Source: a plasmid. From it: 64,000 bases of DNA. Positions within the stretch are counted from its first letter, which is position 1. Every line of letters starts with the position of its first letter. Positions 3,131 through 59,192 of this stretch are shown here, one piece after another. The stretch lies in the sequence record NZ_CP043850.1. One strand, written 5' to 3'. The notes below the pieces were generated by a model. It searched no databases. It was not told the origin of the DNA and worked only from the letters and a program-made list of their open reading frames with translations. The position numbers were made by a program, and so were the translations under genes.

Positions 3131-3984
3131 CGTTCCCCCTGCATGGGCTCGGTCTTCTCGATGATCTCTCGCCGGCTCAGCAACGCGTCCCCGAGCGAGG
3201 CGTTCAGGGCCTGGACCGCGCGGGTGTAGGGGCGCAGGCGCAGGTGGGACACCCGGGCCCCCCCGCCGAAGTGTGCTGCGGCCTCAGCTGCATGGGGCAG
3301 TCGCCCACGCACCGGGGCGCCCAGGACGGTGGCAACGTCCTTGGAGGGCAGTCGCTGGGCTCGATCCTCCACGAGCGTCAGCGACAACGAGTCCCCGATC
3401 CCTCGCTCAGCGCGGGCAGTGACCAGCTCAGGCAGGTAGGAGCGTGTGGCGGCCACGGAGACCAGATCGCTGCGCAGCACCACGTTCAGGTGATCGGCTT
3501 CGGTCCACAGGCTCTCTCGCCCGTAGGGGGCCTCGGCGCGGCCGGCGTCGATGATCACGTCGACGTCCTGTTCGGAGATCCGGCGCAGCACGGCGAACAA
3601 GTCGGCCCAGAACGAGCGCATCCCGCGCGCGGCACGGGGCTCGGCGATCGCCGGCAGCAACCAGCGGGCGGTGGCCGCCTCGGACCCGGAGAGCTCCACC
3701 GCTTGGTCCCAGACGTCCTGCTCCGAGATCGTGCGGTGGAACGATGCCTGGGCCACACCGATCAGCCCACTGTCCGCGGGGATCGACCCCTGCAGCCAGC
3801 CGGCCAACACCGACGAGGGCTTGGAGGCGTCAGCCTCGACCAGCAACACCGGGCGTGGCCAGGACAGGGTCATGGCCACGGCAGCGGTCGTCACGCCGGG
3901 ACTGGTCCCGAAGGATGCCAGGGTCAACACGCTCACTTCTTCGCTCCCTGCATGACAACGCTCGCAGAGTCCGTGGCGGCCCAC
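3127..3984 (-). CDS. TadZ/CpaE-like (degenerate ParA/MinD-fold) pilus assembly protein
   Basis: 285-aa ORF placed between CpaB-like and CpaF genes as in actinobacterial tad loci. Weak MinD-like fold without a canonical Walker A. Start codon uncertain. Confidence 0.5.
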   Translation of the reverse strand: MGRHGLCERCHAGSEEVSVLTLASFGTSPGVTTAAVAMTLSWPRPVLLVEADASKPSSVLAGWLQGSIPADSGLIGVAQASFHRTISEQDVWDQAVELSGSEAATARWLLPAIAEPRAARGMRSFWADLFAVLRRISEQDVDVIIDAGRAEAPYGRESLWTEADHLNVVLRSDLVSVAATRSYLPELVTARAERGIGDSLSLTLVEDRAQRLPSKDVATVLGAPVRGRLPHAAEAAAHFGGGARVSHLRLRPYTRAVQALNASLGDALLSRREIIEKTEPMQGER

Positions 3985-18491: not shown

Positions 18492-18560
18492 GGTTGTCGA
18501 GATGCAGCGAAGAGTTCACACGACGCGCGGTGAACTCTTCGCATATCAGGCGGGATCCGG
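18492..18560. repeat. left-type terminal-inverted-repeat copy (GGTTGTCGAGATGCAGCGAAGAGTTCAC...GCGGGATCCGG) with internal 11-bp stem hairpin
   Basis: About 70% identical over about 70 bp to 57502-57570, and over 25-50 bp to 40752-40800 and 38243-38285. Contains the perfect palindrome GAAGAGTTCAC-N10-GTGAACTCTTC (18509-18540). Confidence 0.6.
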
Positions 18561-18782
18561 TCGGCGTGAAATCTGGGTGTCCCGGTGGGCGCTCCCGCGC
18601 GCCCCAGGGCCCGCCAGAAACGTACGGGCGGCTGCCGCTCTGGCGGGTCGGTTGTGGCGAGTCATGTGGCGGGCGGACAGGGTCGGATGTGGCGCGCACG
18701 GCGCATGGCGGGGTTGTCAACGTCGGCCGAATATTGACCCCTTATCGTCGTTGAATTTTGACCCCCTCGAATTGATGTGTTG

Positions 18783-19562
18783 TTACTTGCCCGCGGGTTG
18801 TGCGGGGGTCTTGAGGAGCTCGCGGCGTGCCCTGGTGCGGTAGGAGTCCCCGCCGAGGGTGAGGACTTCCGCGTGGTGAACGAGTCGGTCGATCATCGCG
18901 GCCGCGACGATGTCGTCGGAGAAGATCTCACCCCATCTGCCGAAGGGCATGTTGCTGGTGAGCACGATCGAGCCTTGCTCGTAGCGGGACGCGATGAGTT
19001 GGAAGAACAGGTTCGCGGCGTCCGCGTCGAATGGCAGGTAGCCGACCTCGTCGATGATCAGCATCCGGTAGCGGCGGAGTCGTTTCAGCTCATGCTCGAG
19101 CCGGCCGGCTGCGTGCGCGGCCTGGAGTCGGCCAGCCCAGCCGGTCGCGGTATCGAACAACACCGGGTATCCAGCGTGCGCGGCTTTGATGCCGAGGCCG
19201 ATCGCGAGGTGTGTTTTGCCGACACCGGGTGGGCCGAGCAGGATCACGTTCTCCGCTTTCGGGATGAACGTTGTCGTCGCGAGGTGAGCGAGGACATCGC
19301 GACGCAGCGAGGGCTGATGGTCGGCGTTGAAGTCGTCCAGGGTCTTCACCGCGGGGAAGTGAGCGCCCGCGATTCGCAGTGTCGTTCCGTTCGCTTCCCG
19401 GTCCGCGACCTGGCGTTACAGGACCGCGGTGAGGTATTCCTCGTGGGACCAGCCCTCGGTGCGGGCTTGATCGCCGAGGGTCTCCCAGACCCGGCCGATC
19501 GTGGGGGTCTTCAACGCCCGGGTCAGGTATCCCATCGTCGCCGCGATCTCCGTTTCGGGCAT
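18783..19562 (-). pseudogene. istB: IstB helper ATPase gene inactivated by nonsense mutation (copy 1)
   Basis: Copy 2 encodes the full 259-aa IstB (GPPGVGKTHLA Walker A). In copy 1 codon CAA is TAA (plus-strand TTACAG at 19417-19422 versus TTGCAG at 24531-24536). This leaves a 71-aa N-terminal ORF and a 188-aa internal-Met ORF (18783-19349). Confidence 0.8.
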
Positions 19563-20821
19563 CAGAGGACCTCACCGGTTCGAGGATCGACAGGGAAATC
19601 GACGCCGAACAACTCGTCGTAGTCGGGCAGTTCCCGAAACACCACGCTGGCCGCTGGCTGCCCGCGATGGTGCAGTCGTTCTCGGTCGCGTTTCGCGGCG
19701 CTGAACGTGGAGCGCAGCCCCCTCGCGATCTCGACGTGGACAGGGTCGATGACGGTCGCGTGTTTCGCCCAACAGCGTTCGTGGTCAGCGACGGTGCGGC
19801 CATCGCAGATCACGATCACTCGTGTCAGCGTGGCCGTCACATCCACCAGCCGCCCAATCACGCGAGGGTCAACGGAGTAGTCGTTGGCATCGATGCGGAC
19901 GTAGTAGTCCCGCGCCAATCGGACCCGGTTTCGCAGCCCCGTCACCGGCGGCAGCGGCGGCAACACGGTCATCGCCTGCAGATCCCGCTCCACCACGTCG
20001 ATAGGTCGCCCGCCCAGCGAGCGGATCGTGCGGGAGTTCGCCCGCGGGAGCCACTCCGCGAGTTGGCTGTTGAAACTGTCCGGTGACGCGAACGACCGCC
20101 CGGGCAGGAACGATGTCTCCATGTACTGGTTGTTGCGTTCGGTCATGCCCTTGAACTCCGGATCCCGCGGAGGGGCGAGCACGATCCTCGTCGCCAACGT
20201 TCCCGCGAACGCGGCCGCGGCCTGCGTGACAGTCCCCTTCCCCCCGATCGCGGCCTCACGATCCCAGACGAGCGTCTTCGAGACCCGCCCGACACGAGAG
20301 ATCAGCTGCCACATCCCCGCGACCAGATCGCCCGCCTGCCGGGACGGGAGCATCACCGCGGACAGGAACCGGGAGAACGTCAACGTCATCACGAGCACCG
20401 GCAGCATCAACGCTTGCCCATGCCCGACAGGGATCCGCGGCTCCGGGAACCACAGATCCATCTGCGCGCTCTCGCCAGGAAGATGAATCAGACGATCCGC
20501 GGGATCGACCCCGGCATACTCCGGACGAATCGTCCGGATCCGATCCTTCAGAATCGTGATCGAGTGTTCCCACCCGATCCGCTCCGCGATCACCGTCGCC
20601 GGCATCCTCGCATCCACCACCAAGAGCTTGCGGATCTCGGGCTCCGCAGCGTCAACGAGTGACCCTTTCCCTGCCCGCTGATACGACGGCGGCGTCTCTG
20701 ACGCCAACGCCGACCGCACCGTATTTCGCGCCACACCGAGCCGACGCACGATCTCCTTGATCGACACGCCCTCCGCCCGATGCAACCGCCTGATCTCTGC
20801 CCACTGTTCCAAATTGATCAC
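19562..20821 (-). CDS. istA: IS21-family transposase IstA
   Basis: 419-aa ORF with N-terminal HTH (MINLEQWAEIRRLHRAEGVSIKEIVRRLGVARNTV) and a DDE catalytic core. Overlaps the istB start. Confidence 0.9.
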   Translation of the reverse strand: MINLEQWAEIRRLHRAEGVSIKEIVRRLGVARNTVRSALASETPPSYQRAGKGSLVDAAEPEIRKLLVVDARMPATVIAERIGWEHSITILKDRIRTIRPEYAGVDPADRLIHLPGESAQMDLWFPEPRIPVGHGQALMLPVLVMTLTFSRFLSAVMLPSRQAGDLVAGMWQLISRVGRVSKTLVWDREAAIGGKGTVTQAAAAFAGTLATRIVLAPPRDPEFKGMTERNNQYMETSFLPGRSFASPDSFNSQLAEWLPRANSRTIRSLGGRPIDVVERDLQAMTVLPPLPPVTGLRNRVRLARDYYVRIDANDYSVDPRVIGRLVDVTATLTRVIVICDGRTVADHERCWAKHATVIDPVHVEIARGLRSTFSAAKRDRERLHHRGQPAASVVFRELPDYDELFGVDFPVDPRTGEVL

Positions 20822-23719: not shown

Positions 23720-23896
23720 GATGAGTCCTTTGTCATGTCGTCGAACGAGCAAGCCCGCGCGACTGGTGGGTAGTTTGCGCCTCGACGATGTGGCGACTGC
23801 ATTCACGGTAACTTTCGGGCGCCCGCGATGTCAACGTCGGCCGAATATTGACCCCTTATCGTCGTTGAATTTTGACCCCCTCGAATTGATGTGTTG

Positions 23897-24676
23897 TTAC
23901 TTGCCCGCGGGTTGTGCGGGGGTCTTGAGGAGCTCGCGGCGTGCCCTGGTGCGGTAGGAGTCCCCGCCGAGGGTGAGGACTTCCGCGTGGTGAACGAGTC
24001 GGTCGATCATCGCGGCCGCGACGATGTCGTCGGAGAAGATCTCACCCCATCTGCCGAAGGGCATGTTGCTGGTGAGCACGATCGAGCCTTGCTCGTAGCG
24101 GGACGCGATGAGTTGGAAGAACAGGTTCGCGGCGTCCGCGTCGAATGGCAGGTAGCCGACCTCGTCGATGATCAGCATCCGGTAGCGGCGGAGTCGTTTC
24201 AGCTCATGCTCGAGCCGGCCGGCTGCGTGCGCGGCCTGGAGTCGGCCAGCCCAGCCGGTCGCGGTATCGAACAACACCGGGTATCCAGCGTGCGCGGCTT
24301 TGATGCCGAGGCCGATCGCGAGGTGTGTTTTGCCGACACCGGGTGGGCCGAGCAGGATCACGTTCTCCGCTTTCGGGATGAACGTTGTCGTCGCGAGGTG
24401 AGCGAGGACATCGCGACGCAGCGAGGGCTGATGGTCGGCGTTGAAGTCGTCCAGGGTCTTCACCGCGGGGAAGTGAGCGCCCGCGATTCGCAGTGTCGTT
24501 CCGTTCGCTTCCCGGTCCGCGACCTGGCGTTGCAGGACCGCGGTGAGGTATTCCTCGTGGGACCAGCCCTCGGTGCGGGCTTGATCGCCGAGGGTCTCCC
24601 AGACCCGGCCGATCGTGGGGGTCTTCAACGCCCGGGTCAGGTATCCCATCGTCGCCGCGATCTCCGTTTCGGGCAT
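23897..24676 (-). CDS. istB: IS21-family helper ATPase IstB (intact)
   Basis: 259 aa with Walker A GPPGVGKTHLA and Walker B LLIIDEVGY. Confidence 0.9.
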   Translation of the reverse strand: MPETEIAATMGYLTRALKTPTIGRVWETLGDQARTEGWSHEEYLTAVLQRQVADREANGTTLRIAGAHFPAVKTLDDFNADHQPSLRRDVLAHLATTTFIPKAENVILLGPPGVGKTHLAIGLGIKAAHAGYPVLFDTATGWAGRLQAAHAAGRLEHELKRLRRYRMLIIDEVGYLPFDADAANLFFQLIASRYEQGSIVLTSNMPFGRWGEIFSDDIVAAAMIDRLVHHAEVLTLGGDSYRTRARRELLKTPAQPAGK

Positions 24677-25935
24677 CAGAGGACCTCACCGGTTCGAGGA
24701 TCGACAGGGAAATCGACGCCGAACAACTCGTCGTAGTCGGGCAGTTCCCGAAACACCACGCTGGCCGCTGGCTGCCCGCGATGGTGCAGTCGTTCTCGGT
24801 CGCGTTTCGCGGCGCTGAACGTGGAGCGCAGCCCCCTCGCGATCTCGACGTGGACAGGGTCGATGACGGTCGCGTGTTTCGCCCAACAGCGTTCGTGGTC
24901 AGCGACGGTGCGGCCATCGCAGATCACGATCACTCGTGTCAGCGTGGCCGTCACATCCACCAGCCGCCCAATCACGCGAGGGTCAACGGAGTAGTCGTTG
25001 GCATCGATGCGGACGTAGTAGTCCCGCGCCAATCGGACCCGGTTTCGCAGCCCCGTCACCGGCGGCAGCGGCGGCAACACGGTCATCGCCTGCAGATCCC
25101 GCTCCACCACGTCGATAGGTCGCCCGCCCAGCGAGCGGATCGTGCGGGAGTTCGCCCGCGGGAGCCACTCCGCGAGTTGGCTGTTGAAACTGTCCGGTGA
25201 CGCGAACGACCGCCCGGGCAGGAACGATGTCTCCATGTACTGGTTGTTGCGTTCGGTCATGCCCTTGAACTCCGGATCCCGCGGAGGGGCGAGCACGATC
25301 CTCGTCGCCAACGTTCCCGCGAACGCGGCCGCGGCCTGCGTGACAGTCCCCTTCCCCCCGATCGCGGCCTCACGATCCCAGACGAGCGTCTTCGAGACCC
25401 GCCCGACACGAGAGATCAGCTGCCACATCCCCGCGACCAGATCGCCCGCCTGCCGGGACGGGAGCATCACCGCGGACAGGAACCGGGAGAACGTCAACGT
25501 CATCACGAGCACCGGCAGCATCAACGCTTGCCCATGCCCGACAGGGATCCGCGGCTCCGGGAACCACAGATCCATCTGCGCGCTCTCGCCAGGAAGATGA
25601 ATCAGACGATCCGCGGGATCGACCCCGGCATACTCCGGACGAATCGTCCGGATCCGATCCTTCAGAATCGTGATCGAGTGTTCCCACCCGATCCGCTCCG
25701 CGATCACCGTCGCCGGCATCCTCGCATCCACCACCAAGAGCTTGCGGATCTCGGGCTCCGCAGCGTCAACGAGTGACCCTTTCCCTGCCCGCTGATACGA
25801 CGGCGGCGTCTCTGACGCCAACGCCGACCGCACCGTATTTCGCGCCACACCGAGCCGACGCACGATCTCCTTGATCGACACGCCCTCCGCCCGATGCAAC
25901 CGCCTGATCTCTGCCCACTGTTCCAAATTGATCAC
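24676..25935 (-). CDS. istA: IS21-family transposase IstA
   Basis: Identical to 19562-20821. Confidence 0.9.
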   Translation of the reverse strand: MINLEQWAEIRRLHRAEGVSIKEIVRRLGVARNTVRSALASETPPSYQRAGKGSLVDAAEPEIRKLLVVDARMPATVIAERIGWEHSITILKDRIRTIRPEYAGVDPADRLIHLPGESAQMDLWFPEPRIPVGHGQALMLPVLVMTLTFSRFLSAVMLPSRQAGDLVAGMWQLISRVGRVSKTLVWDREAAIGGKGTVTQAAAAFAGTLATRIVLAPPRDPEFKGMTERNNQYMETSFLPGRSFASPDSFNSQLAEWLPRANSRTIRSLGGRPIDVVERDLQAMTVLPPLPPVTGLRNRVRLARDYYVRIDANDYSVDPRVIGRLVDVTATLTRVIVICDGRTVADHERCWAKHATVIDPVHVEIARGLRSTFSAAKRDRERLHHRGQPAASVVFRELPDYDELFGVDFPVDPRTGEVL

Positions 25936-40035: not shown

Positions 40036-40515
40036 CTACGCGTGGAGCAGGATGCGCTCCACGACCTCCTCCGGGGTCTCTGCAGCCGTGATGCGGTGCT
40101 CGGCCACGAAGTCGAGGGGCTGCCAGCCGTGGTGCCAGCTGGCCATCTCCTCGGCGCTGAAGTCGCCGGCCTTGGGGCGTGTTGCGTGGCGGCGGACGGT
40201 CTCCGCGAAGGTGAGGTCGAAGGCGTAGAAGCGGGCGTCGTCGCTGGCGGCGGCGATCCGTTGGAGCATTGGCCCGTAGCGGCCGGCGTGGAAGATTCCG
40301 TCCAGGATCACGTGATGGCCCCGGGCCAGGCAGTGGCGCGCGGCCGCCTCGAGCAGGTCCGCATGGGCGAGGCTCTCCTGCTCCCGCTCGGCGTACACAT
40401 CCCGTCGGAAGTGGTCCTGGCTGAGCACGGCGACCGGACCGTCCAACTGGGATTGGAGCAGACGGGCGACGGTGGTCTTGCCGGAGGCCGCGTTGCCGCG
40501 GAGCACGACGAGCAT
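40036..40515 (-). CDS. P-loop kinase (AAA_33 / gluconokinase-chloramphenicol-phosphotransferase-like)
   Basis: 159 aa with Walker A VVLRGNAASGKTTVA at the N-terminus. Confidence 0.6.
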   Translation of the reverse strand: MLVVLRGNAASGKTTVARLLQSQLDGPVAVLSQDHFRRDVYAEREQESLAHADLLEAAARHCLARGHHVILDGIFHAGRYGPMLQRIAAASDDARFYAFDLTFAETVRRHATRPKAGDFSAEEMASWHHGWQPLDFVAEHRITAAETPEEVVERILLHA

Positions 40516-40590
40516 TCAGTGAATCTCCAGTTCTATGTGCGGTTCCGGGAGTTCGTCAATGACACCCGGGTCTACAGAGCGTCAAGCGTT

Positions 40591-40714
40591 CAGGCGCTTC
40601 CTGGCGTATGAAACATATTTGCGCGTTTCTGAAATCTTCACTGCATCTCGACAGGCGCTTCCTGGCGTATGAAACATATTTGCGCGTTTCTGAAATCTTC
40701 ACTGCATCTCGACA
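40591..40714. repeat. tandem duplication (2 x about 61 bp) of right-type TIR end (rc TGTCGAGATGCAGTGAAGATTTCAGAAACGCGCAAATATGTTTCATACGCCAGGAAGCGCCTG)
   Basis: The unit CAGGCGCTTCCTGGCGTATGAAACATATTTGCGCGTTTCTGAAATCTTCACTGCATCTCGACA occurs at 40591-40653 and again at 40652-40714. Its outer about 50 bp also occur at 58839-58897. The first ~25 nt of its reverse complement match the left-type copies. Confidence 0.7.
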
Positions 40715-40751
40715 TGGGCGATGGCGCAGGGCACAAGGGAAGGCGAGGTGG

Positions 40752-40800
40752 TGTTGTAGAGATGCAGCGAAGATTTCACACGACACGCGGTGAACCCTTC
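40752..40800. repeat. left-type TIR copy in inverted orientation relative to 40591-40714 (TTGTAGAGATGCAGCGAAGATTTCACACGACACGCGGTGAACCCTTC)
   Basis: One mismatch to the TGTCGAG terminus. Hairpin-capable GAAGATTTCAC...GTGAACCCTTC. Together with the tandem right-type copies it gives an end-to-end junction of element termini. Confidence 0.55.
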
Positions 40801-41166
40801 TCGGAGCAAAACCTTCAGCGGGGTCTGTGAAATGTACCCCTCGGCCGCCGAGAGAGTCATCAACGCCCAGGGTCAGTACATCTAGCCGACCACCCTGACC
40901 GCTGCGTCGCGGACATGTCCCAGGCGCGCGCCTGACAGTGCGCTCATGCCGGGAAGGCGATTCTGAGGCCGTGCCACCTGCCGCTCGACTTCCGCCTCAG
41001 GCACCGGGTGCAGAGGAGTCACCTCTCGTGGTCGACGGCGGGCTATCAGTCGGGGATGCTCTCGCGTGCAGCCTTGCGAATCTGTGCTGAAGCGTGCTGC
41101 GAGGCAAAGGTCAGCAGTTGAGAAACAGCTGGCGGGCGTGAAGCAGGAACTGGTGACAGCTGATCG

Positions 41167-41295
41167 TTAGTGCCGGGAGGCTGAGGATGAGTCGTTGGCG
41201 GCCGTGCATCCGGTGAGCAGGAAAGCACCGACCACGACGGTGATTGCAGCGGTTTTCGTTCCGCCGTACTTCGGGAATGGCCTGAAGTTTTTCAT
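41167..41295 (-). CDS. unannotated 42-aa lipoprotein ORF downstream of a CsoR-type operator
   Basis: Minus-strand ATG at 41295 with RBS AAGGAATCCC gives MKNFRPFPKYGGTKTAAITVVVGAFLLTGCTAANDSSSASRH* (signal peptide with lipobox LTGC). Too short for the supplied ORF track. The perfect palindrome TACCCCATAGGGGTA lies 42 bp upstream. Confidence 0.4.
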   Translation of the reverse strand: MKNFRPFPKYGGTKTAAITVVVGAFLLTGCTAANDSSSASRH

Positions 41296-41335
41296 GGGAT
41301 TCCTTCCCGTGTCTGCCCGTGGTGCCAATTGGCCT

Positions 41336-41352
41336 TACTACCCCATAGGGGT
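41336..41352. promoter_or_regulatory. CsoR-type operator (perfect palindrome TACCCCATAGGGGTA)
   Basis: Same TACCCC-N3-GGGGTA architecture as the sites at 45979, 49974 and 57070, and as the known B. subtilis CsoR operator TACCCTACGGGGGTA. Confidence 0.55.
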
Positions 41353-41415
41353 AGTGCCTACCTGCGTGACGCGGAAGCGCCCCCGCCCGGAACGAGCCCG
41401 GGAGGGGCACTGCGT

Positions 41416-42357
41416 TCAGTCGTGCTTGCTGATTTCCGGTTCATGTTCGGCAATGTGCTCGGTCTCGATCTGGAAGGTCGAGTGATGGATGGAGACCTCG
41501 AAGTGTCCTGCGACGCAATCTTTGATCTCGTGGAGCGTCTGCGCGGCACGACCGTCGGTGAAACACTCGTCCTCGACGACGACGTGGGCGGTCAGGATCG
41601 GCAGGCCGGTCGCCACAGTGGAGGCGTGCAGGTCATGGACATCTTTGACATGGTCAAGTTCGAGGATGTGCGAACGCACCTTGTCGAGGTCGAGGCCCTT
41701 GGGAGTGAACTCCATAAGGACGCCAGTGGTCTCGCGCATGAGCTTGAACGCGCGAGGCACGATCAATGCGGCGATAAGCAGTCCGGCGATGGCATCGGCC
41801 TGCATGAACCCGGTCGTGGCGATGACGATCGCCGCGATGATCACTCCGAGCGACCCGAGGGCATCATTGAGAACTTCGAGGAACGCGGCACGCATGTTGA
41901 AGTTCGAGCCGCGGCTGGAGGCGAGGATGGTGATGGCGATGATGTTCGCGACCAGGCCGATGATGCCGAATATCAGCAGTTCGCTTGCGGGCACCTCCGG
42001 CGGCTCGAACAGTCGCCGGATGCCTTCGATGGCGGCGTAGGTGCCCACCGCCAGCAGCAGTGCCGACTGTCCGAGGGCTGCGATCACTTCAATACGCCGG
42101 AACCCCCAGGTGCGCTTGGAGTTGGCGGGCTTGAGCATCAGCGTCGCGGCGATCAGTGCGACCAGCAGGCCGGACGCATCGGTAATGGCATGGGCGGTGT
42201 CGGTCAGCAATGCGAGGCTGCCGGTGATGACCGAGCCCATGGCCTGGGCAACGACGATCGTCGCGGTGATCGAGAATGCGATCCAGAGTTTCTTGCGGAA
42301 ATCTCCGGGGTGACCGGTCTCGCTGGCGGCGGGGCCGTGATTGTGTCCTGCGCCCAT
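41416..42357 (-). CDS. cation diffusion facilitator (CzcD/ZitB-like) metal efflux transporter
   Basis: About 313 aa from MGAGHNHGPAAS (His-rich N-terminus). Six TM helices with a CDF signature region and a C-terminal cytoplasmic domain. The ORF track over-extends upstream into the arsR gene. Confidence 0.8.
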   Translation of the reverse strand: MGAGHNHGPAASETGHPGDFRKKLWIAFSITATIVVAQAMGSVITGSLALLTDTAHAITDASGLLVALIAATLMLKPANSKRTWGFRRIEVIAALGQSALLLAVGTYAAIEGIRRLFEPPEVPASELLIFGIIGLVANIIAITILASSRGSNFNMRAAFLEVLNDALGSLGVIIAAIVIATTGFMQADAIAGLLIAALIVPRAFKLMRETTGVLMEFTPKGLDLDKVRSHILELDHVKDVHDLHASTVATGLPILTAHVVVEDECFTDGRAAQTLHEIKDCVAGHFEVSIHHSTFQIETEHIAEHEPEISKHD

Positions 42358-42359
42358 GT

Positions 42360-42749
42360 CTACTTCTTGTCCGTATCTGACGCGTGGTGGGTATGTGGGA
42401 GTCGCAGGTGCGTGCAGAGCAGGGCCTGCGTGCCGGTGGCATCGAGGAGGCGTTCGGCAGCGGCGATGAGGGTACGCAGGAGCTCGGACTGTGCCAGCGA
42501 GTACCAGGTGGAGCGCCCTTCCGGGCGCATCGTCGCCAGGCCGCACTCGACGAGGAAGCCGACATGCTTGCTCACCGTGGACTGGGCCAGGCCCATGTGC
42601 TCGACCAGGTCCCGGACCCGGTGCTCCCCGGAGGCGAGGTGCTGCACGATCGCTAACCTCGTCGGCTCCGCAAATGCCTGGAACAGGTGGGCGTACGCTA
42701 CCGTCGCCACTTCGTCGAGGGTTGCCCCCTTCTCTTGAATCATCGCCAT
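42360..42749 (-). CDS. ArsR/SmtB-family metal-sensing transcriptional repressor
   Basis: 129 aa with HTH LFQAFAEPTRLAIVQHLASGEHRVRDLVEHMGLAQSTVSKHVGFLVECGL. C-terminal His/Cys-containing tail (CTHLRLPHTHH). Immediately upstream of the CDF gene. Confidence 0.8.
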   Translation of the reverse strand: MAMIQEKGATLDEVATVAYAHLFQAFAEPTRLAIVQHLASGEHRVRDLVEHMGLAQSTVSKHVGFLVECGLATMRPEGRSTWYSLAQSELLRTLIAAAERLLDATGTQALLCTHLRLPHTHHASDTDKK

Positions 42750-42885
42750 AAGCCGATCATATCGCTCTAGAGCGATATTGTCGAGTGTGATATGTCGCTC
42801 CGACGCGGAATGAAGCTCAGGGGTCCCGTCGCACCCGAGGATGGGCTACCTGGGGGATGGTCGGTCGCATAGCTGCAGTGGGAAG

Positions 42886-43383
42886 CTACGCCAGCTGACC
42901 ATCGGCCCCGGTGGAGAGCAGGCGGGGTGGGGAGCCGATGTCGATGAGTCGGGTGAAGTAGTCCTGTGCGCAGGTGGCGACGACCCCCACCTGCGGGTGG
43001 CTCCTCCTCTGCCCTGGCCAGGTCAGCGCCACGGTCACCGGTGGGGCATCCTCGATGGGCAGATAGACCACCTCCGGCGCGCGGTGATTGTGCGTTGTCG
43101 CCTCTGCAGTGATGCCGATGGCGTCGCCGACAGCGATGCGGGTTAACCACTCGCCCGTGTTCGCCACCGAGATCGTGCGCGGCATGTGAGCAGTCGTACT
43201 CCACAGCTCCCCGGTGGCCGTCGGAGCGGTCGCGCAGACCGCCACCGGCCCGTCAGCGAGATCGGCTAGGGTCACCGACTCCTGCCGGGCACGGGAGTCG
43301 CTGCTCGTCACCGATACAACCAGGCGTTCGGTGAACAGCGGTAACCGCTCCAAACCCGGACCAATGGCACGTTTGGGTGGAGA
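42886..43383 (-). pseudogene. LysR-family regulator fragment (substrate-binding domain only), truncated by the IS3-family insertion
   Basis: C-terminal LysR pattern LERLPLFTERLVVSVTSSDS...VTLADLADGPVAV.... The upstream part of the ORF is encoded by the IS terminal repeat (TYGCISP from TGGGTGCATCAGTCCC). No LysR HTH on the far side of the IS. Confidence 0.55.
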
Positions 43384-43415
43384 GGGACTGATGCACCCAT
43401 AGGTGACAGCCGTCT

Positions 43416-44477
43416 TCACGCCGCGTCTGCGGGCGTGTGGTCCATGATCAACTCGTACTCGACCGGCGTCAATCGGCCCAGGCGCACCTGCCGGCGGCGG
43501 CGGTGGTAGGTCCGCTCGATCCAGGTGATGATCCCGGCCCGCAGCTCGTCCCGGGTGTCCCAGTCGCGTCGGTCCAGCACGTTCTTCTGCAGCAACGCGA
43601 AGAAGGACTCCATAGCCGCGTTGTCCCCTGCAGCACCGACCTGTCCCATGGACCCGATCAGCCCGTGGGCGGTCAGGGCGTCCTGGAATAGGGCCGAGCG
43701 GAATTGCGAGCCGCGGTCCGAGTGCACGATGCACCCGGCCACCACGTCGGTGCCTCCGCGGCGGGCCACGGCCTGCTCGAGCGCGTTCACGGCCAACGAG
43801 GCCTGCATCCGGTCGGCCATGGAGTACCCCACGATCCGTCCGGCGTAGAGATCCTTGATCGCGCAGAGGTAGAGCTTGCCCTCACCGGTGGGGTGTTCGG
43901 TGATGTCGGTCAACCACAGCCGGTTGGGCTCCTCGGCAGAGAAGTCCCGGCGGACGTGGTCATCGTGCACGGGCGGGCCTGGGCGGGTCCCGTTCTTGCC
44001 GCGCTTGGCCCCGAACGCGCAGTGCCACTGGTTCTCGTGGCAGAGCCGCCAGGCGGTACGGGCCGCCATCGGAGCGCCAGCATTCTCGGCCTCGTCGCGC
44101 AGCAGCCGGTACCCGAACTCGGGATCGTTCTGGTGGGCGTCGTGGAGGGCGTTGGCCCGGTGAGCGGCCTCCACCTCCGCGGTGGTGACAGGGTTCTGGA
44201 GCCAGCGGTAGTAGGGCTGGCGGGCGAGCTTGAGGACCCGCAAGGACACCACGACCGGGATCTGGTCGGCGGCGAGCTCGGACACGAGCGGGTACATCAT
44301 TTTTTCGGCAGGTTCGCCTGGGAGAGGTAGGCCGCGGCGCGGCGTAGGACTTCGTTCTCCTGCTCGAGCAGCCGGATCCTGCGGCGGGCTGCGCGGAGTT
44401 CTTCGGCCTCGGCCTTGGTGGGGCCGGGCTTGTTCCCAGCTTCGATCTCGGCCTGGCGCATCCAGTTCGTCAGACAA
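43416..44477 (-). CDS. IS3-family transposase OrfB (DDE integrase core), expressed as an OrfAB fusion by -1 frameshift
   Basis: DDE motifs (WLTDITEH..., HSDRGSQFRS, ...ESFFALLQKNV). Frame -1 relative to orfA through the AAAAAAT run near 44300-44312. Confidence 0.85.
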   Translation of the reverse strand: MSDELDAPGRDRSWEQARPHQGRGRRTPRSPPQDPAARAGERSPTPRRGLPLPGEPAEKMMYPLVSELAADQIPVVVSLRVLKLARQPYYRWLQNPVTTAEVEAAHRANALHDAHQNDPEFGYRLLRDEAENAGAPMAARTAWRLCHENQWHCAFGAKRGKNGTRPGPPVHDDHVRRDFSAEEPNRLWLTDITEHPTGEGKLYLCAIKDLYAGRIVGYSMADRMQASLAVNALEQAVARRGGTDVVAGCIVHSDRGSQFRSALFQDALTAHGLIGSMGQVGAAGDNAAMESFFALLQKNVLDRRDWDTRDELRAGIITWIERTYHRRRRQVRLGRLTPVEYELIMDHTPADAA

Positions 44478-44599
44478 GAGAAGCTGATCCCGAAGTCCTT
44501 CGCGATCTGCTTCAAGTGGGTGCCGGGCTCACGGTTCTGGGCGACGCGGACGACGTCATCGCGGAACTCTTGGGGGTAGGGGGCGGGCATGGTGCACAT
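44297..44599 (-). CDS. IS3-family transposase OrfA (HTH/leucine-zipper)
   Basis: 100 aa ending ...AAYLSQANLPKK* at the A-run CTGCCGAAAAAATGATG (minus strand), the typical -1 frameshift window. Confidence 0.85.
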   Translation of the reverse strand: MCTMPAPYPQEFRDDVVRVAQNREPGTHLKQIAKDFGISFSCLTNWMRQAEIEAGNKPGPTKAEAEELRAARRRIRLLEQENEVLRRAAAYLSQANLPKK

Positions 44600-44650
44600 C
44601 CTTCCCTGCGGTGTGGGAACACCACAGATCGTATGTCACCTATACGTGCA

Positions 44651-44932
44651 TCAGTCCCGTTCAAGTGAGTAGATCCTGGAACGGCCGAACTTCAGACGGA
44701 TGCCGTAGCCGCCGTTGGGTCCGTCAGGCAGAAACTCTGCCCCCAATTCTTCGAGGGCGGCCCGCACACGCTCCTGCTTCTTCTCCGACAAGTCGTGTCG
44801 CCCCTTCTCGAAGTCGCGCAACTCTTCCTTGGTCACGTTGGCTTCGCGGGCGATATATTGGGCGCTCACCTTCACGAGGATGCGCGCGGCGCGTGTCATG
44901 TCCCCGTTGGAGATGTGCTGGCTCTCCATCAC
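44651..44932 (-). CDS. XRE-like HTH protein; C-terminus and stop codon supplied by the IS3 terminal repeat
   Basis: 93-aa ORF with an HTH-like MTRAARILVKVSAQYIAREANVTKEELRDFEKG. Its last codons (...LERD*) are GAACGGGACTGA, which is the IS end GGGACTGA. Possibly 3'-truncated by the insertion. Confidence 0.35.
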   Translation of the reverse strand: MMESQHISNGDMTRAARILVKVSAQYIAREANVTKEELRDFEKGRHDLSEKKQERVRAALEELGAEFLPDGPNGGYGIRLKFGRSRIYSLERD

Positions 44933-45978: not shown

Positions 45979-45995
45979 ATACCCCTATAGGGTAT
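45979..45995. promoter_or_regulatory. CsoR-type operator-like palindrome (TACCCCTATAGGGTA) with upstream ACCCTATA half-site
   Basis: ATACCCTATACCCCTATAGGGTAT lies directly upstream of the arsR-like/CMD operon start (45966). Confidence 0.45.
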
Positions 45996-46719: not shown

Positions 46720-47031
46720 TCAGGAGCGAACGAGCCGGTTGATGGCGTCGGTGGCTTCCTGGATCTTCTCGACGGCCGCCTCGTCGCTGAGCTTGGCGGC
46801 ATCAAGCACGCAGTGCTTGAGATGGTCGTCGAGCAGACCAGTCGCGACCCCCTGGAGGGCACGGGTCAGGGCGGAGACCTGGGTGAGGATGTCGATGCAG
46901 TACTTCTCCTCATCGATCATCTTCGCGATCCCACGCGCCTGTCCTTCGATGCGCTTCATGCGGCCGAGATAGCGCTCCTTGTCGCTGATGTAGCCGTGCT
47001 GGTGGGAATCGTTATCGACAGACATGGGCAT
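46720..47031 (-). CDS. csoR: CsoR/RcnR-family copper-sensing repressor
   Basis: About 103 aa from MPMSVDNDSHQHGYI. Signature HGYISDKERYLGRMKRIEGQARGIAKMIDEEKYCIDILTQ...H..C (Cys-His-Cys ligand pattern). Directly downstream of the CopB-like ATPase. Confidence 0.8.
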   Translation of the reverse strand: MPMSVDNDSHQHGYISDKERYLGRMKRIEGQARGIAKMIDEEKYCIDILTQVSALTRALQGVATGLLDDHLKHCVLDAAKLSDEAAVEKIQEATDAINRLVRS

Positions 47032-47035
47032 GTCC

Positions 47036-49273
47036 TTACTTCTGGCGCTCCAGGACGGAACGCGTGCTAGCTTCGGGTGTAAGGTCGATGCGCCGCAGCA
47101 GCTGGGCGTTGAGCGCGACAACCACGGTGGAGGCTGACATCAGGATCGCGCCGATCGACATTGGCAGGACGAGTCCCACCGGTGCGAGGATACCGGCCGC
47201 CAACGGCACCGAAAGAAGGTTGTAGCCGGCGGCCCACCACAGGTTCTGCTTCATCTTGCCGTATGCGCGTCGCGACAGCTGGATGATCGAGAGCACGCTG
47301 CGTGGGTCGGAACTGGCCAGGATCACCCCGGCCGAGGCGATGGCGACATCGGTGCCAGCGCCGATCGCGATGCCGACATCGGCCTGCGCCAGAGCCGGGG
47401 CGTCGTTGACGCCGTCGCCGACCATCGCGACCCTCTTGCCCTCTTCCTGCAGCTGGGAGACCTTCGCGGACTTGTCCTCCGGGCGCACGCCGGCGAAGAC
47501 GCGGTCGATGCCGAGCTCCTTGCCGACCTCGTTCGCGACCGCCTCGGCATCGCCGGTGATCATGACGACCTCGACGCCGAGGGCGTGGAGGGCGTCGACG
47601 GCGTAGCGGGATTCTGGCCGGACCTCGTCGGCGAGCCTCAGCCCGCCGACCACCTGGCCGCCGCGGAGAACGTGCAGAATGATCGCGCCCTCGGAGCGCC
47701 ATGCCTCGGCCGTGCCGACCTCGTGCTGACCGGTCTCCTCGAGCAGCCGGGGCCCGCCGACGCGGACCTCCTGGCCGGAGACGGTCGCAGTGACGCCGAC
47801 GGCGGGCGAGGATGAGAAGCCGCTGGCCTGCTGGAGGGCAAAACCCTTGTCCTTGGCGGCGGTGACGATGGCCTTGGCGAGCGGGTGCTCGCTGTCGGCC
47901 TCGGCCGAGGCAGCGAGGGCGAGGACCTGGTCGGCGTCGAGTTCGCCGGTCGGCTCGACGCCGGTGACGGTGGGCTCGCCCTTGGTCAGCGTGCCGGTCT
48001 TGTCGAACAGGACCGCGTCGACCTGCCGCATGGACTCCAGCGCCAGGCGGTCCTTCACTAGGACGCCGCCGCGGGCGGCTCGCTCGGTGGCGATGGAGAC
48101 GACCAGCGGGATCGCCAGGCCGAGGGCGTGGGGGCAGGCGATGACGAGCACGGTGATGGTGCGCACGACGGCCTCGTCGGGCATGCCGATGAGCGTCCAG
48201 ACGACCGCAGTGACCAGCGCCGCGCCAAGAGCGAACCAGAACAGCCAGGCCGCGGCCTTGTCGGCGATCCGCTGGGCGCGGGAGGATGAGTTCTGCGCCT
48301 CGGCGACGAGCCGGTTGATGCCGGCCAGGGCGGTGTCGTCACCGGTGGCGGTGATCTCCACCCGCAGGCCGGAGTCGGTGGCGACGGTGCCGGCGGTGAC
48401 GGTCTGGCCCTCGCCGCGAGAGACCGGGCGGGACTCGCCGGTGATCATGGACTCGTCCATCTCGGCGCGGCCGTCGACGATGGTTCCGTCAGCCGGGACG
48501 CTGCCGCCGGGGCGCACGAGGACCACGTCGCCCACGTCGAGGTCGGCTGGGGCCACCTTGACGACGTTCTCGCCCTCGACGCGCTCGGCCTCGTCTGGCA
48601 GCAGTGCCGCCAACGAGTCGAGCGCCGAGGTGGTCTGGGCCAGGGAGCGCATCTCGATCCAATGGCCCAGCAGCATGATTACGATCAGCAGCGCCAGTTC
48701 CCACCAGAATTCGAGCTCATGATGGACGAGCCCGAGCGTGGCGGCCCAGGAAGCGAAGAAGGCCACCGTGATCGCCAGAGCGATGAGCAGCATCATCCCG
48801 GGCTTGCGGGACTTCAACTCGCTGACGGCACCGGTGAGGAAGGGCCTGCCGCCCCAGACGTACATGACGGTGCCCAGTGCCGCGGCGACCCAGCCCGCCC
48901 AGCCGGGGACCTCGTAGCCCAGCAGCATGGCGAACATCGGTGAGAGGGCGACCGCGGGGATGGCGATGACGAGGTTGATCCAAAACAGTCGGCGGAACTG
49001 GCCAACGTGGTCCCCGTGCCCGCCATGGCCGCTGTGATCTCCGTACCCACCGTGCTGGGCATGCTCATCGTGGCCGCCGTGCTCGTCGAGGCCCGTGTGG
49101 CCTGAGTGCTGCCCGTGGTCCATGGCGTGGCCCTGATGCCCGGTGTGCTGACCCTCGCGCGTGCCGTGCGCATCCGCCGAGGCGTGCGCGGACACAGACC
49201 CGTGGTGATGCTCGCCGTGGGCGGGTGTATCGGTTTCGTGACCGTGATGCTGTTGTGAGTTCGGGTCCGTCAT
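47036..49273 (-). CDS. P1B-type heavy-metal ATPase, CopB-like (His-rich N-terminus, CPH motif)
   Basis: 745 aa with His-rich N-terminal MBD (HGHETDTPAHGEHHHGS...), TM6 CPH (IACPHALGLAIP), DKTGTLT, the HP motif and [10 protein letters not shown]. Confidence 0.9.
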   Translation of the reverse strand: MTDPNSQQHHGHETDTPAHGEHHHGSVSAHASADAHGTREGQHTGHQGHAMDHGQHSGHTGLDEHGGHDEHAQHGGYGDHSGHGGHGDHVGQFRRLFWINLVIAIPAVALSPMFAMLLGYEVPGWAGWVAAALGTVMYVWGGRPFLTGAVSELKSRKPGMMLLIALAITVAFFASWAATLGLVHHELEFWWELALLIVIMLLGHWIEMRSLAQTTSALDSLAALLPDEAERVEGENVVKVAPADLDVGDVVLVRPGGSVPADGTIVDGRAEMDESMITGESRPVSRGEGQTVTAGTVATDSGLRVEITATGDDTALAGINRLVAEAQNSSSRAQRIADKAAAWLFWFALGAALVTAVVWTLIGMPDEAVVRTITVLVIACPHALGLAIPLVVSIATERAARGGVLVKDRLALESMRQVDAVLFDKTGTLTKGEPTVTGVEPTGELDADQVLALAASAEADSEHPLAKAIVTAAKDKGFALQQASGFSSSPAVGVTATVSGQEVRVGGPRLLEETGQHEVGTAEAWRSEGAIILHVLRGGQVVGGLRLADEVRPESRYAVDALHALGVEVVMITGDAEAVANEVGKELGIDRVFAGVRPEDKSAKVSQLQEEGKRVAMVGDGVNDAPALAQADVGIAIGAGTDVAIASAGVILASSDPRSVLSIIQLSRRAYGKMKQNLWWAAGYNLLSVPLAAGILAPVGLVLPMSIGAILMSASTVVVALNAQLLRRIDLTPEASTRSVLERQK

Positions 49274-49343: not shown

Positions 49344-49961
49344 TCAGGACGCTGGTTGGATCTCGCTCTCGACGACCCACTTGTGGTTCGTCATCTTCAT
49401 GCCGTCCGTCTCGTAGTCGACCATGTAGACCGTCTCATCGGTGGACGAAGCAATGATGGCCTTTACGCCTTCCATGCCTTCCATGTGCTCGGCGAGCAGA
49501 GTCACCTCTGTGCCGTCGGCCAGGCGCGCGTCGCCGGCATCCTCAATTTCTTCCTGCACGACCCACTTGTGATCAGTGACGGGGTCGCCGCCACCTGCGG
49601 GCGTGTAGTTCACGGAGTACGTGTACGTGTCGAATGCGCCGGAAATCGTTGCTGTAGCCCCTTCCATGCCTTCCATGTGGTCGGCCGTGAGCTGCACCTC
49701 GGTACCGACAGGGTAGGTGGGCTCACTGGCTTCGGCGATACCCTCGGGTGCCGGTCCGCCGTCCATCGGGTGCTCCATCTCTTCATCACCGCTTTCTGCG
49801 TTGTTGCCGCCGTGGCCCTGATGCTCCTCAGTAGCCGAGGGGTCGGTCTGCTGGTTGTCGTCTGCTCCGCTGGCGCAACCGGCGAGCACGAGCGCCACTC
49901 CGAGGGCTCCCGCTGCCAGTCCTGTTCGCAGTCTCCTCTGCATGTCATTTCCTTTCATCAA
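49344..49961 (-). CDS. DUF1541/YdhK-like copper-associated lipoprotein (duplicated domain)
   Basis: Lipobox LAGC. Two repeats carrying HMEGMEG...Y.V.Y and a Met/His-rich linker. This family typically sits next to copper ATPases. Confidence 0.6.
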   Translation of the reverse strand: MMKGNDMQRRLRTGLAAGALGVALVLAGCASGADDNQQTDPSATEEHQGHGGNNAESGDEEMEHPMDGGPAPEGIAEASEPTYPVGTEVQLTADHMEGMEGATATISGAFDTYTYSVNYTPAGGGDPVTDHKWVVQEEIEDAGDARLADGTEVTLLAEHMEGMEGVKAIIASSTDETVYMVDYETDGMKMTNHKWVVESEIQPAS

Positions 49962-49973
49962 TATGCCTACCCT

Positions 49974-49990
49974 ATACCCCTAGGGGGTAC
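49974..49990. promoter_or_regulatory. CsoR-type operator (TACCCCTAGGGGGTA) followed by shared TACTAGTCAA box
   Basis: Lies between the ydhK-like start (49961) and the ferredoxin stop. The same GGGTAC...TACTAGTCAA arrangement recurs upstream of copZ (57070-57100). Confidence 0.55.
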
Positions 49991-52839: not shown

Positions 52840-53193
52840 TCAGGAGCGCACGAGGCGGGCGATGGCCTCGGACGCCTCGCCGAGCCTCTGCTCGCTGACT
52901 GGTCCGCCGGCGAGTGCGGCGTCGAGGACGCAATGCTTGAGGTGATCGTCGAGCAGGCCGAGGGCGACGTTTTCGAGTGCCCTGGTGACTGCGGAGATCT
53001 GGGTGAGGATGTCGATGCAGTAGCGGTCCTCGTCGACCATCCGATCGATGCCGCGGATTTGGCCTTCCAGGCGGCGCAGGCGATTGCGGTACTTCGTCTT
53101 ATCGCTGATGTATCCGTGGACGGACGCGTCGCCGTCGCCTCCTGCGGGGCAGGTGTCGAGATGGGTTTCGGTGGTGGGAGTCGTAGTGGTCAT
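52840..53193 (-). CDS. csoR: CsoR/RcnR-family copper-sensing repressor (second paralogue)
   Basis: 117 aa with HGYISDKTKYRNRLRRLEGQIRGIDRMVDEDRYCIDILTQ...H..C. Confidence 0.8.
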   Translation of the reverse strand: MTTTTPTTETHLDTCPAGGDGDASVHGYISDKTKYRNRLRRLEGQIRGIDRMVDEDRYCIDILTQISAVTRALENVALGLLDDHLKHCVLDAALAGGPVSEQRLGEASEAIARLVRS

Positions 53194-55881: not shown

Positions 55882-56823
55882 TCAGTGGCCGTCGGAATGC
55901 GAATCGTCTGTCTTCGTGCCGTCACCATGCTCGGCGTCGATCACGAACTCGGCGGTGTGCACCTGCCCGTCGACCTGGAAGTCCAGGTAGAGCAGGTAAC
56001 GGTCGGCGGTCGGGGCCTCCGCTGCGAATCCGATGTCGGGTCCGGCCGTGTCCCCGGCCTGGGGCTGGTCGCCCTCGGCGTGGACGTGCAGGTAGGCGAG
56101 GTCACCCTCGCGCAGCGCCACTAAGTGGCCGAACGCGCCCAGGTAAGGCTCCAGCGTGGTCACCGGCTGACCGTCACGCTCGACCGAGATGGTGAGCTCG
56201 CTTGAGGTGCCCGCAGTGAGGTCGCCGTTGAGGGAGACGGTGTATCCGTCGACCTCGTCGGTGGGCTGCGCCTCGGTCTCGACAGGGGTGAAGTCGCCCG
56301 CGACCTCGATTGCGCGGGTGAGAGTGATGCCTTCGGCTTCCTCGCCCGCGGGTGTGAAGTCGGCGTACACGCGGTAGGTGCCCGCCTCGTCCCAGGTCCA
56401 CGGCACCGACCAGGTGCCTGTGCTCGTGTCGAGTTCGGGGTGCACGTGCTGGAAGCCGGCGCCGTCGGTGCGCACGGCGATCAGGTGCAGGTCCTTCTCG
56501 TGCGCGGTGGTGTATTCGGTCACCGGTTCGCCGGACTCGTCGAGGATCTGGAAGCTCAGGTCTCCATCCTCGCCTGCGGCCGTGGGGGCCTGGACCGGAG
56601 AGAGCACGAAGCCGTCCGCGCTTGCGGAGACCCCGTTCAGAGCGGGCTCCGCGGTTTCCTGCGCAGCGTCGCCGTGCCCTTCACCGTGTGCGTTCACGCC
56701 GCTTCCTTCTGCCCATGCTGCTGCGAAGCTATCGGGAATGACGGCGCCGGCGAGGCCGAAGGCCCCGCCGAACGCCACCACCAACCCGGCCCCGTAGAGC
56801 GCGAGCCGTCCTCCGGCCTTCAT
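55882..56823 (-). CDS. secreted His/Asp-rich protein of the cop operon (possible periplasmic copper-binding protein)
   Basis: 313 aa with N-terminal TM/signal, His-rich segments (HGEGHGDAAQE, HVHPE, HVHAEGD) and a C-terminal ...HGDGTKTDDSHSDGH. Confidence 0.45.
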   Translation of the reverse strand: MKAGGRLALYGAGLVVAFGGAFGLAGAVIPDSFAAAWAEGSGVNAHGEGHGDAAQETAEPALNGVSASADGFVLSPVQAPTAAGEDGDLSFQILDESGEPVTEYTTAHEKDLHLIAVRTDGAGFQHVHPELDTSTGTWSVPWTWDEAGTYRVYADFTPAGEEAEGITLTRAIEVAGDFTPVETEAQPTDEVDGYTVSLNGDLTAGTSSELTISVERDGQPVTTLEPYLGAFGHLVALREGDLAYLHVHAEGDQPQAGDTAGPDIGFAAEAPTADRYLLYLDFQVDGQVHTAEFVIDAEHGDGTKTDDSHSDGH

Positions 56824-57032
56824 CAGACGCGCACCGCCGAGTAGCCGGCCTCCTCGACCGCCGCGAGGACCTTGGCGTCGTCGATCTCGCCCTCGGCGGT
56901 GACGTTGAGCTTGCCGGTCTGCGCGCTGACTTGGATGTCCTGGACGCCGGGGATCTCGCTGACCTCCTCGCGGATCGACATCTCGCAGTGGCCGCAGGTC
57001 ATGCCCGTCACCTGGTAATCGTTCGAAGCCAT
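56823..57032 (-). CDS. copZ: CopZ-type heavy-metal-associated copper chaperone
   Basis: 69 aa with MTCGHC metal-binding motif and ferredoxin-like HMA fold. Confidence 0.85.
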   Translation of the reverse strand: MASNDYQVTGMTCGHCEMSIREEVSEIPGVQDIQVSAQTGKLNVTAEGEIDDAKVLAAVEEAGYSAVRV

Positions 57033-57069: not shown

Positions 57070-57086
57070 GTACCCCTACCGGGTAC
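57070..57086. promoter_or_regulatory. CsoR-type operator (GTACCCCTACCGGGTAC) upstream of copZ-copA
   Basis: Palindrome GTACCC-N5-GGGTAC about 38 bp upstream of the copZ ATG, followed by a TACTAGTCAA box. Confidence 0.55.
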
Positions 57087-58779: not shown

Positions 58780-59192
58780 GGGCTGACTGGAGAACCACGA
58801 GCTGCACCCGGACAGGGTTCAACTGTCAATACCTAAGTGGCTCGTGGTCGTATGAAACATATTTGCGCGTTTGTGAAATCTTCGCTGCATCTCGACAGGT
58901 GTCCATGCCAGAACCGGCGCCAGTCTGAGGCGTGATCTCCCGCCCCATCCCTGAGGGAAATGAGGCAGGAAGTCGCGGGATATTTCCCTCTGGAACGGGC
59001 TGGCCTGGAGGTGGTCGCTTGCGTCCGTTCGACTGCGTCGCTCAGCCGCAAGCGTACCCCCCATGTCAAGCGCGTGGAAGGGGGTGGGACCGGATCTGCC
59101 CTGGACGAGGGACATCACGGCGAGGATCGGGCCTTCTGGCTGGTGAGGGGCCCGTGCCCCGCGGTCATCGTCAAGAAGTGGAAGGGCAGAAG

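Follow-up and report, generated by a model that had tools for sequence, protein, structure and literature searches.

The 42-codon open reading frame on the minus strand at 41167..41295 of the window, which is the whole 64,000-nucleotide stretch of plasmid DNA (NZ_CP043850.1) that was analysed, is, with a probability of roughly 0.9, what a rearrangement has left of the 5' part of a cueP-family lipoprotein gene under CsoR control. At the level of sequence comparison, tblastn searches and DNA alignments establish the homology of this stump to a truncated CueP-family lipoprotein gene, the position of the breakpoint and the loss of the CueP domain. The original prediction is supported as regards the operator, the regulon logic and the lipoprotein signal, but it had described a dedicated 42-aa lipoprotein gene; the reading frame actually joins codons 1 to ~39 of a cueP gene for 204 aa to unrelated non-coding DNA. 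Both the gene family and the operator type are known, and the stump is an ordinary pseudogene remnant instead of a novel tiny gene.

Taken by itself, the stump looks like a purpose-built small lipoprotein gene because it carries a complete signal for expression and export. The reading frame extends from an ATG at 41295-41293 to a TAA at 41169-41167 (minus strand) and encodes the product MKNFRPFPKYGGTKTAAITVVVGAFLLTGCTAANDSSSASRH. Its start codon is preceded, at a distance of 4 nt, by the ribosome-binding site GGGAAGGAA (41300..41308, minus strand), which is conserved in intact cueP loci. Substrates of Lgt and LspA are characterized by a charged n-region, a hydrophobic h-region and a lipobox of the form [LVI][ASTVI][GAS]C within residues 15-35, and the 42-aa product has these features of a lipoprotein precursor, with K2, R5, K9 and K14 in the n-region of its signal peptide, the hydrophobic core TAAITVVVGAFLL and the lipobox L27-T28-G29-C30. 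The start codon, ribosome-binding site, encoded sequence, signal peptide and lipobox (ORF 41295..41167) had thus been described correctly in the original prediction. The predicted mature lipopeptide comprises 13 residues, Cys-TAANDSSSASRH (Cys30 and a 12-residue tail), and lacks a Cys/His metal-binding cluster. Profile searches with the 42-aa product found no match to an NCBIfam family, the CueP domain included, and a sigma-70 promoter scan at the stump detected no consensus promoter, a result that is uninformative for a high-G+C actinobacterium, as actinobacterial promoters fit the sigma-70 consensus poorly. Past the TAA of the stump (41167-40885, minus strand) the same frame stays open for 93 further codons, the composition of which is not of the coding type, so that a natural TAA-to-Tyr variant yields a product of 137 aa (P0112).

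The characterised prototype of the CueP proteins is the periplasmic CueP of Salmonella, and CdCueP of C. diphtheriae has been studied biochemically. An intact relative of the stump was found when positions 40500-42800 were compared with plasmids by megablast, which yielded matches of ~93% identity to Rothia terrae p3 and to a Rothia amarae plasmid. These matches cover only window positions 41172-42800 and enter an annotated gene for a 204-aa 'CueP family metal-binding protein', which in R. terrae p3 forms part of the gene order ArsR, CDF, CueP (204 aa), thioredoxin and RepA. The Rothia and window DNAs are near-identical over the CDF stop, a hairpin, the operator palindrome, the ribosome-binding site, the ATG and ~38 codons, after which they diverge totally. 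Likewise, the stretch comprising ArsR, CDF, hairpin, palindrome, ribosome-binding site and ATG is 92-95% identical to intact cueP loci on Rothia plasmids and, in other Micrococcales, on elements that are chromosomal or conjugative. When the Rothia CueP was searched against the 64-kb window by tblastn, residues 1-35 alone matched, with 80% identity at 41295-41191; the missing 3' part of cueP, which might have been displaced by an insertion, was searched for in the whole window and nothing past these residues was found. The Rothia protein belongs unambiguously to the CueP family, scoring 169.8 bits against NF038094 (cutoff 60), with the domain spanning residues 58-203. In an alignment of the CueP family (n=24), the lipobox cysteine C30 as well as H117, C119, H122, C127 and C197 are invariant, and L27 is nearly invariant. 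Since the break lies at residue ~39, H117, C119, H122, C127 and C197 are all absent from the stump. The copper site of CueP is formed by a Cys/His cluster in the C-terminal domain (PMC4546943, PMC7558416). The stump resembles the CueP lipoproteins of Actinomycetota (NF038094, PF21172) in its N-terminal 35-39 residues, its upstream DNA and the ArsR-CDF synteny, but differs from them in that the export and lipidation signal alone survives, while the domain 58-203 with its Cys/His cluster is gone.

A similar gene arrangement was found in eight further loci (L092-L099), whose 204-aa CueP shares 94% identity with the Rothia protein and whose genes follow the order CopA, CsoR, DUF8010/8185, a 123-aa protein, CMD, a LysR fragment, ArsR, CDF, CueP and thioredoxin. 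The window shares this order up to the CDF gene with a DNA identity of 92-97%. A TrwC relaxase is encoded beyond thioredoxin in seven of these eight loci (the exception being L097), and such a locus constitutes a copper/metal module of the conjugative or integrative kind. In the window, the cation diffusion facilitator gene (41416..42357, minus strand; 313 aa as called elsewhere; Pfam PF01545/PF16916) lies immediately upstream of the stump and is itself preceded by an ArsR/SmtB-family regulator gene (42360..42749, minus strand; Pfam PF01022). Past the CDF stop, a G+C-rich hairpin at 41377..41410 (minus strand; -33 kcal/mol for 41356-41420), which is conserved in Rothia, probably acts as a terminator between the CDF gene and the cueP promoter. 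At 43383-44658 the window has ~1 kb of DNA in excess of other Micrococcus strains, including a 353-aa reading frame (43416-44477, minus strand) that by eye resembles an IS3-type transposase and is inserted beside a fragment with a LysR substrate domain (42886-43734). Elsewhere in the window, two copies of a set of a 281-aa and a 419-aa reading frame with identical layout (18777-20821 and 23891-25935), located 5,114 nt apart, probably represent duplicated IS21-type elements; at the equivalent position, L007 and L010 have an IstB/transposase pair.

The similarity to intact cueP modules ends at a rearrangement breakpoint at 41172..41181, within codons 38-41, and all eight of L092-L099 lose their similarity to the window at 41172. 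A base-by-base comparison demonstrated that the terminal Arg-His-stop of the 42-codon reading frame is supplied by foreign DNA; what cueP contributes to the stump is the signal peptide, the lipobox with Cys30 and a linker of ~9 residues, and the stop together with the 2-3 codons before it derives from the foreign DNA. The non-coding DNA that is joined to the stump (40790..41171) has stops in all six frames and is found only in Micrococcus loci with the same truncation. Its codon-position GC is flat (0.58/0.66/0.66) compared with a GC3 of 0.81-0.91 in the neighbouring genes, and neither an open frame nor a codon bias was detected in it. In the plasmid collection, searches with this segment retrieved a short repeat and nothing else; they gave no counterpart in 88 intact-cueP loci (blastn, tblastx) and no family in Rfam. 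The short repeat elements at 40591..40790 consist of a 61-nt tandem duplication and an inverted copy, are located exactly where the collinearity between Micrococcus strains ends and strain-specific genes start, and are strongly self-complementary at 40630-40778; they may represent an IS or MITE end or a recombination hot spot. The consensus of this repeat family reads ...CGTATGAAACATATTTGCGCGTTT(C/G)TGAAATCTTC(A/G)CTGCATCTCGACA, the inverted copy being partial. Further copies are present in the window at 58854-58897 (plus strand) and 18499-18518 (minus strand), and several Micrococcus plasmids carry one to three unannotated copies each.

The truncated reading frame is widespread in Micrococcus. 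The exact 42-aa product occurs in 1,020 indexed blocks of the assembly collection and was seen on 511 Micrococcus contigs, and it has already been deposited as a Micrococcus 'hypothetical protein' (UniRef A0A7W7M416_9MICC), so that the description of the gene as unannotated does not hold in general. All ten Micrococcus-type loci that were examined have an identical junction, one of them on a 2.49-Mb chromosome, and also share the next ~420 nt, until collinearity stops at ~40753 at a short repeat element. Because the junction is identical in ten loci and the product is present on 511 contigs, the truncation is real and old enough to have become fixed in the Micrococcus lineage, where it lies at the edge of a variable region.

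Upstream of the stump, the window contains a perfect CsoR-type (type-2) operator palindrome, TACCCCATAGGGGTA, at 41339..41353, in which the arms TACCCC and GGGGTA are separated by a 3-nt spacer (minus-strand reading TACCCCTATGGGGTA). The original prediction had recognized a perfect palindrome here, but had placed it at 41336-41352, 1-3 nt off, and 42 bp upstream of the ATG, while the actual gap between box and ATG is 43 nt. Type-2 CsoR operators have been defined experimentally as 5'-TAC-X9-GTA-3' inverted repeats around C/G tracts (PMC3902906). The sequence TAC-CCCTATGGG-GTA of 41339-41353 fits this dyad with its C4/G4 tracts and closely resembles the CsoR sites of S. lividans copZA (PMC3902906). 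In line with the predicted CsoR-type operator, two genes for CsoR proteins of the copper type (PF02583) are present in the window, one at 46720..47031 (minus strand), downstream of copA (47036-49273), and a second at 52840..53193 (minus strand), whose product is 60% identical to the first; both paralogues contain the Cu(I)-sensor signature Cys...His-x3-Cys (YC...DDHLKHC). When up to one mismatch was allowed, the motif TACCCC-N3-GGGGTA was found at four sites in the window (41339, 45980, 49975 and 57071) compared with 0.04 expected, and none of 100 shuffles reached four sites; the motif is thus not a chance occurrence. The other three sites lie directly upstream of copper-type genes, as had been proposed. 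The box at 45980..45994 (one mismatch) is located ahead of the 123-aa ArsR-like and CMD genes of the copper module, the perfect box at 49975..49989, between TTGACT and TAGGGT, precedes a DUF1541 lipoprotein-copA-csoR operon, and the box at 57071..57085 (one mismatch) precedes an operon of copZ (56823-57032), a gene for a 313-aa protein and copA2, with the second csoR just downstream. The DUF1541 protein (49344-49961, minus strand) is encoded directly behind the perfect box at 49975, and the 313-aa protein (55882-56823, minus strand), encoded between copZ and copA2, is rich in His and Asp and has no Pfam match; both proteins, as products of the two cop operons, are likely to handle copper outside the cytoplasm. 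The box at 41339-41353 is similar to the type-2 CsoR operators of S. lividans csoR/copZA and B. subtilis copZA in being a promoter-region site with a Cu-type csoR nearby. In contrast to these operators, the predicted site is orphaned, the gene that it controlled having been destroyed.

The same box is located at -57/-58 of the start codon in the eight closest intact cueP loci (L012-L019), which derive from Corynebacterium, Brachybacterium, Rothia, Gulosibacter, Brevibacterium and one metagenome bin. A survey of 80 intact cueP loci from various Actinomycetota found a box inside the zone -260..+60 in 15 of them, compared with a background of 0.025 per equivalent stretch. Since the same box fronts intact cueP genes elsewhere, this comparison identifies the box at 41339-41353 as the native operator of cueP, orphaned by the truncation. 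In many of the other, more distant cueP loci (L020-L091) a CsoR-type box is instead located at the start of the operon, ~1.3-1.5 kb upstream of cueP, which suggests that CsoR often controls cueP as one of the later genes of an operon. Overall, cueP of Actinomycetota is predicted to belong to the CsoR regulon; in Salmonella, cueP is controlled by CueR. A literature search on CsoR control of cueP in Actinobacteria and on the stump locus in Micrococcus found nothing specific. Intact modules also contain a second CsoR-type box (TACCCCCACCGGGTA or TACCCCCAGGGGGTA) between cueP and the thioredoxin gene, which is located ~21 nt past the cueP stop in L012-L017 (locus position 3633; 2244 in L015) and is also present in L092-L099. 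The cysteines of CueP need to be kept reduced (PMC4546943), and a copper-regulated pair of cueP and trx, as predicted from these boxes, would fit this need.

The ancestral mobile module would accordingly have had the order CopA-CsoR-DUF8010/8185-123aa-CMD-(LysR fragment)-ArsR-CDF, followed by the terminator hairpin, the CsoR box with promoter and ribosome-binding site, cueP(204 aa), trx and, further on, the TrwC relaxase. In the Micrococcus lineage, to which the window belongs, a rearrangement would then have severed this module within codons 38-41 of cueP and joined it to unrelated non-coding DNA, which by chance provided Arg-His-stop, so that the operator, probably the promoter, the ribosome-binding site, the signal peptide, the lipobox and the 12-residue tail would have remained. 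We infer that apo-CsoR, provided by either paralogue, would still occupy the box and that copper would still derepress a short transcript. Its translation, if it occurs, would give a precursor from which export, lipidation at Cys30 and cleavage would produce a 13-residue lipopeptide without metal ligands. As far as can be judged from its sequence, the orphaned promoter/operator may still be copper-responsive, and the product of the stump is most likely a functionless relic. As a counterpoint, the start codon, ribosome-binding site, signal peptide and lipobox are intact in most Micrococcus assemblies and could have been retained for a function.

Among the alternative explanations, it is conceivable but improbable that the stump itself is irrelevant and that its orphan operator and promoter have been co-opted, either for copper-inducible read-through into downstream genes or as a site that titrates CsoR. 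The operator is indeed perfect and conserved, the genes that follow beyond ~40753 are mostly co-oriented with the stump across strains, and no canonical terminator was detected on the minus strand over the stretch that leads from the stump to the next gene. However, ~650 nt of non-coding DNA, including the self-complementary repeats, separate the stump from this next gene (40515), and the downstream genes vary by strain and have no link to copper, so that there is no consistent regulatory target.

That the stump is, as envisaged in the original prediction, a bona fide gene of the CsoR regulon for a copper-responsive 42-aa lipoprotein, and that it is maintained by selection, appears very improbable, although operator, ribosome-binding site, ATG, signal peptide and lipobox are all intact and the product is identical on the 511 Micrococcus contigs. 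The reading frame corresponds by homology to codons 1-39 of a gene with a 204-aa product, its last codons and stop are foreign, and the mature peptide lacks a metal-binding Cys/His cluster. A check for conservation of the small reading frame behind the palindrome found full-length cueP instead in Rothia, Corynebacterium, Brachybacterium, Gulosibacter, Brevibacterium and L092-L099, so that, in genomes other than those of the Micrococcus lineage, this upstream region with its palindrome fronts the full-length 204-aa gene. Moreover, the uniformity of the stump in Micrococcus equals that of the adjacent non-coding DNA and thus reflects recent common descent. Across eight Micrococcus-type alleles the reading frame shows not a single substitution and the 420 nt downstream show two, a divergence that is too low for dN/dS. 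Two 42-aa alleles that appeared to be 86% identical (L010 and L011) are mosaics, which are plasmid-like up to codon 23 and from there on identical to the window; their sequences point to recombination with an intact module, and not to long-term conservation. Over codons 1-23, Micrococcus-type and plasmid-type alleles differ by six non-synonymous and two synonymous substitutions, an approximately neutral proportion. In addition, the database cluster contains rare variants: one has lost the stop (137 aa), others are shortened to 36 aa or to 30 aa, the latter without the lipobox Cys, and still others carry T28N in the lipobox or one of several missense changes; stop-loss, frameshift and lipobox variants all argue against a selected gene, but most of these variants stem from metagenome assemblies, and some may be sequencing errors. 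Neither the comparison of alleles nor the rare variants point to constraint on the stump. It is likewise very doubtful that the truncation created a new copper-inducible micro-lipoprotein, in which the Cys-TAANDSSSASRH lipopeptide or read-through transcription gained a function and was kept in Micrococcus. An assembly or sequencing artefact, such as a chimeric join or a frameshift in an intact cueP, for which nothing speaks beyond the abrupt loss of homology, was rejected with near certainty because the same junction recurs in 10/10 independent loci, including that on the complete 2.49-Mb chromosome, and no cueP-like sequence was found past the junction in any frame.

The stump of a truncated cueP gene shares with other gene remnants at the edges of mobile elements the abrupt break in homology, an adventitious stop, a lineage-fixed junction, a strain-variable flank and the label 'hypothetical protein'. 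Unlike typical remnants of this kind, it keeps a complete and plausible signal for expression and export. A short open reading frame with a textbook operator, ribosome-binding site, signal peptide and lipobox can thus turn out to be what is left of a larger gene, a question that a comparison with intact relatives quickly settles. For the 42-aa 'hypothetical protein' entries, such as A0A7W7M416_9MICC, partial cueP pseudogene would be a better label. The breakpoint marks the edge of a plasmid- or ICE-derived copper module that has become fixed in Micrococcus and adjoins a strain-variable region. With regard to the CueP family, the CsoR-type operator at the fixed position of -57/-58 places the cueP-family lipoprotein genes of several genera of Actinomycetota in the predicted CsoR regulon.
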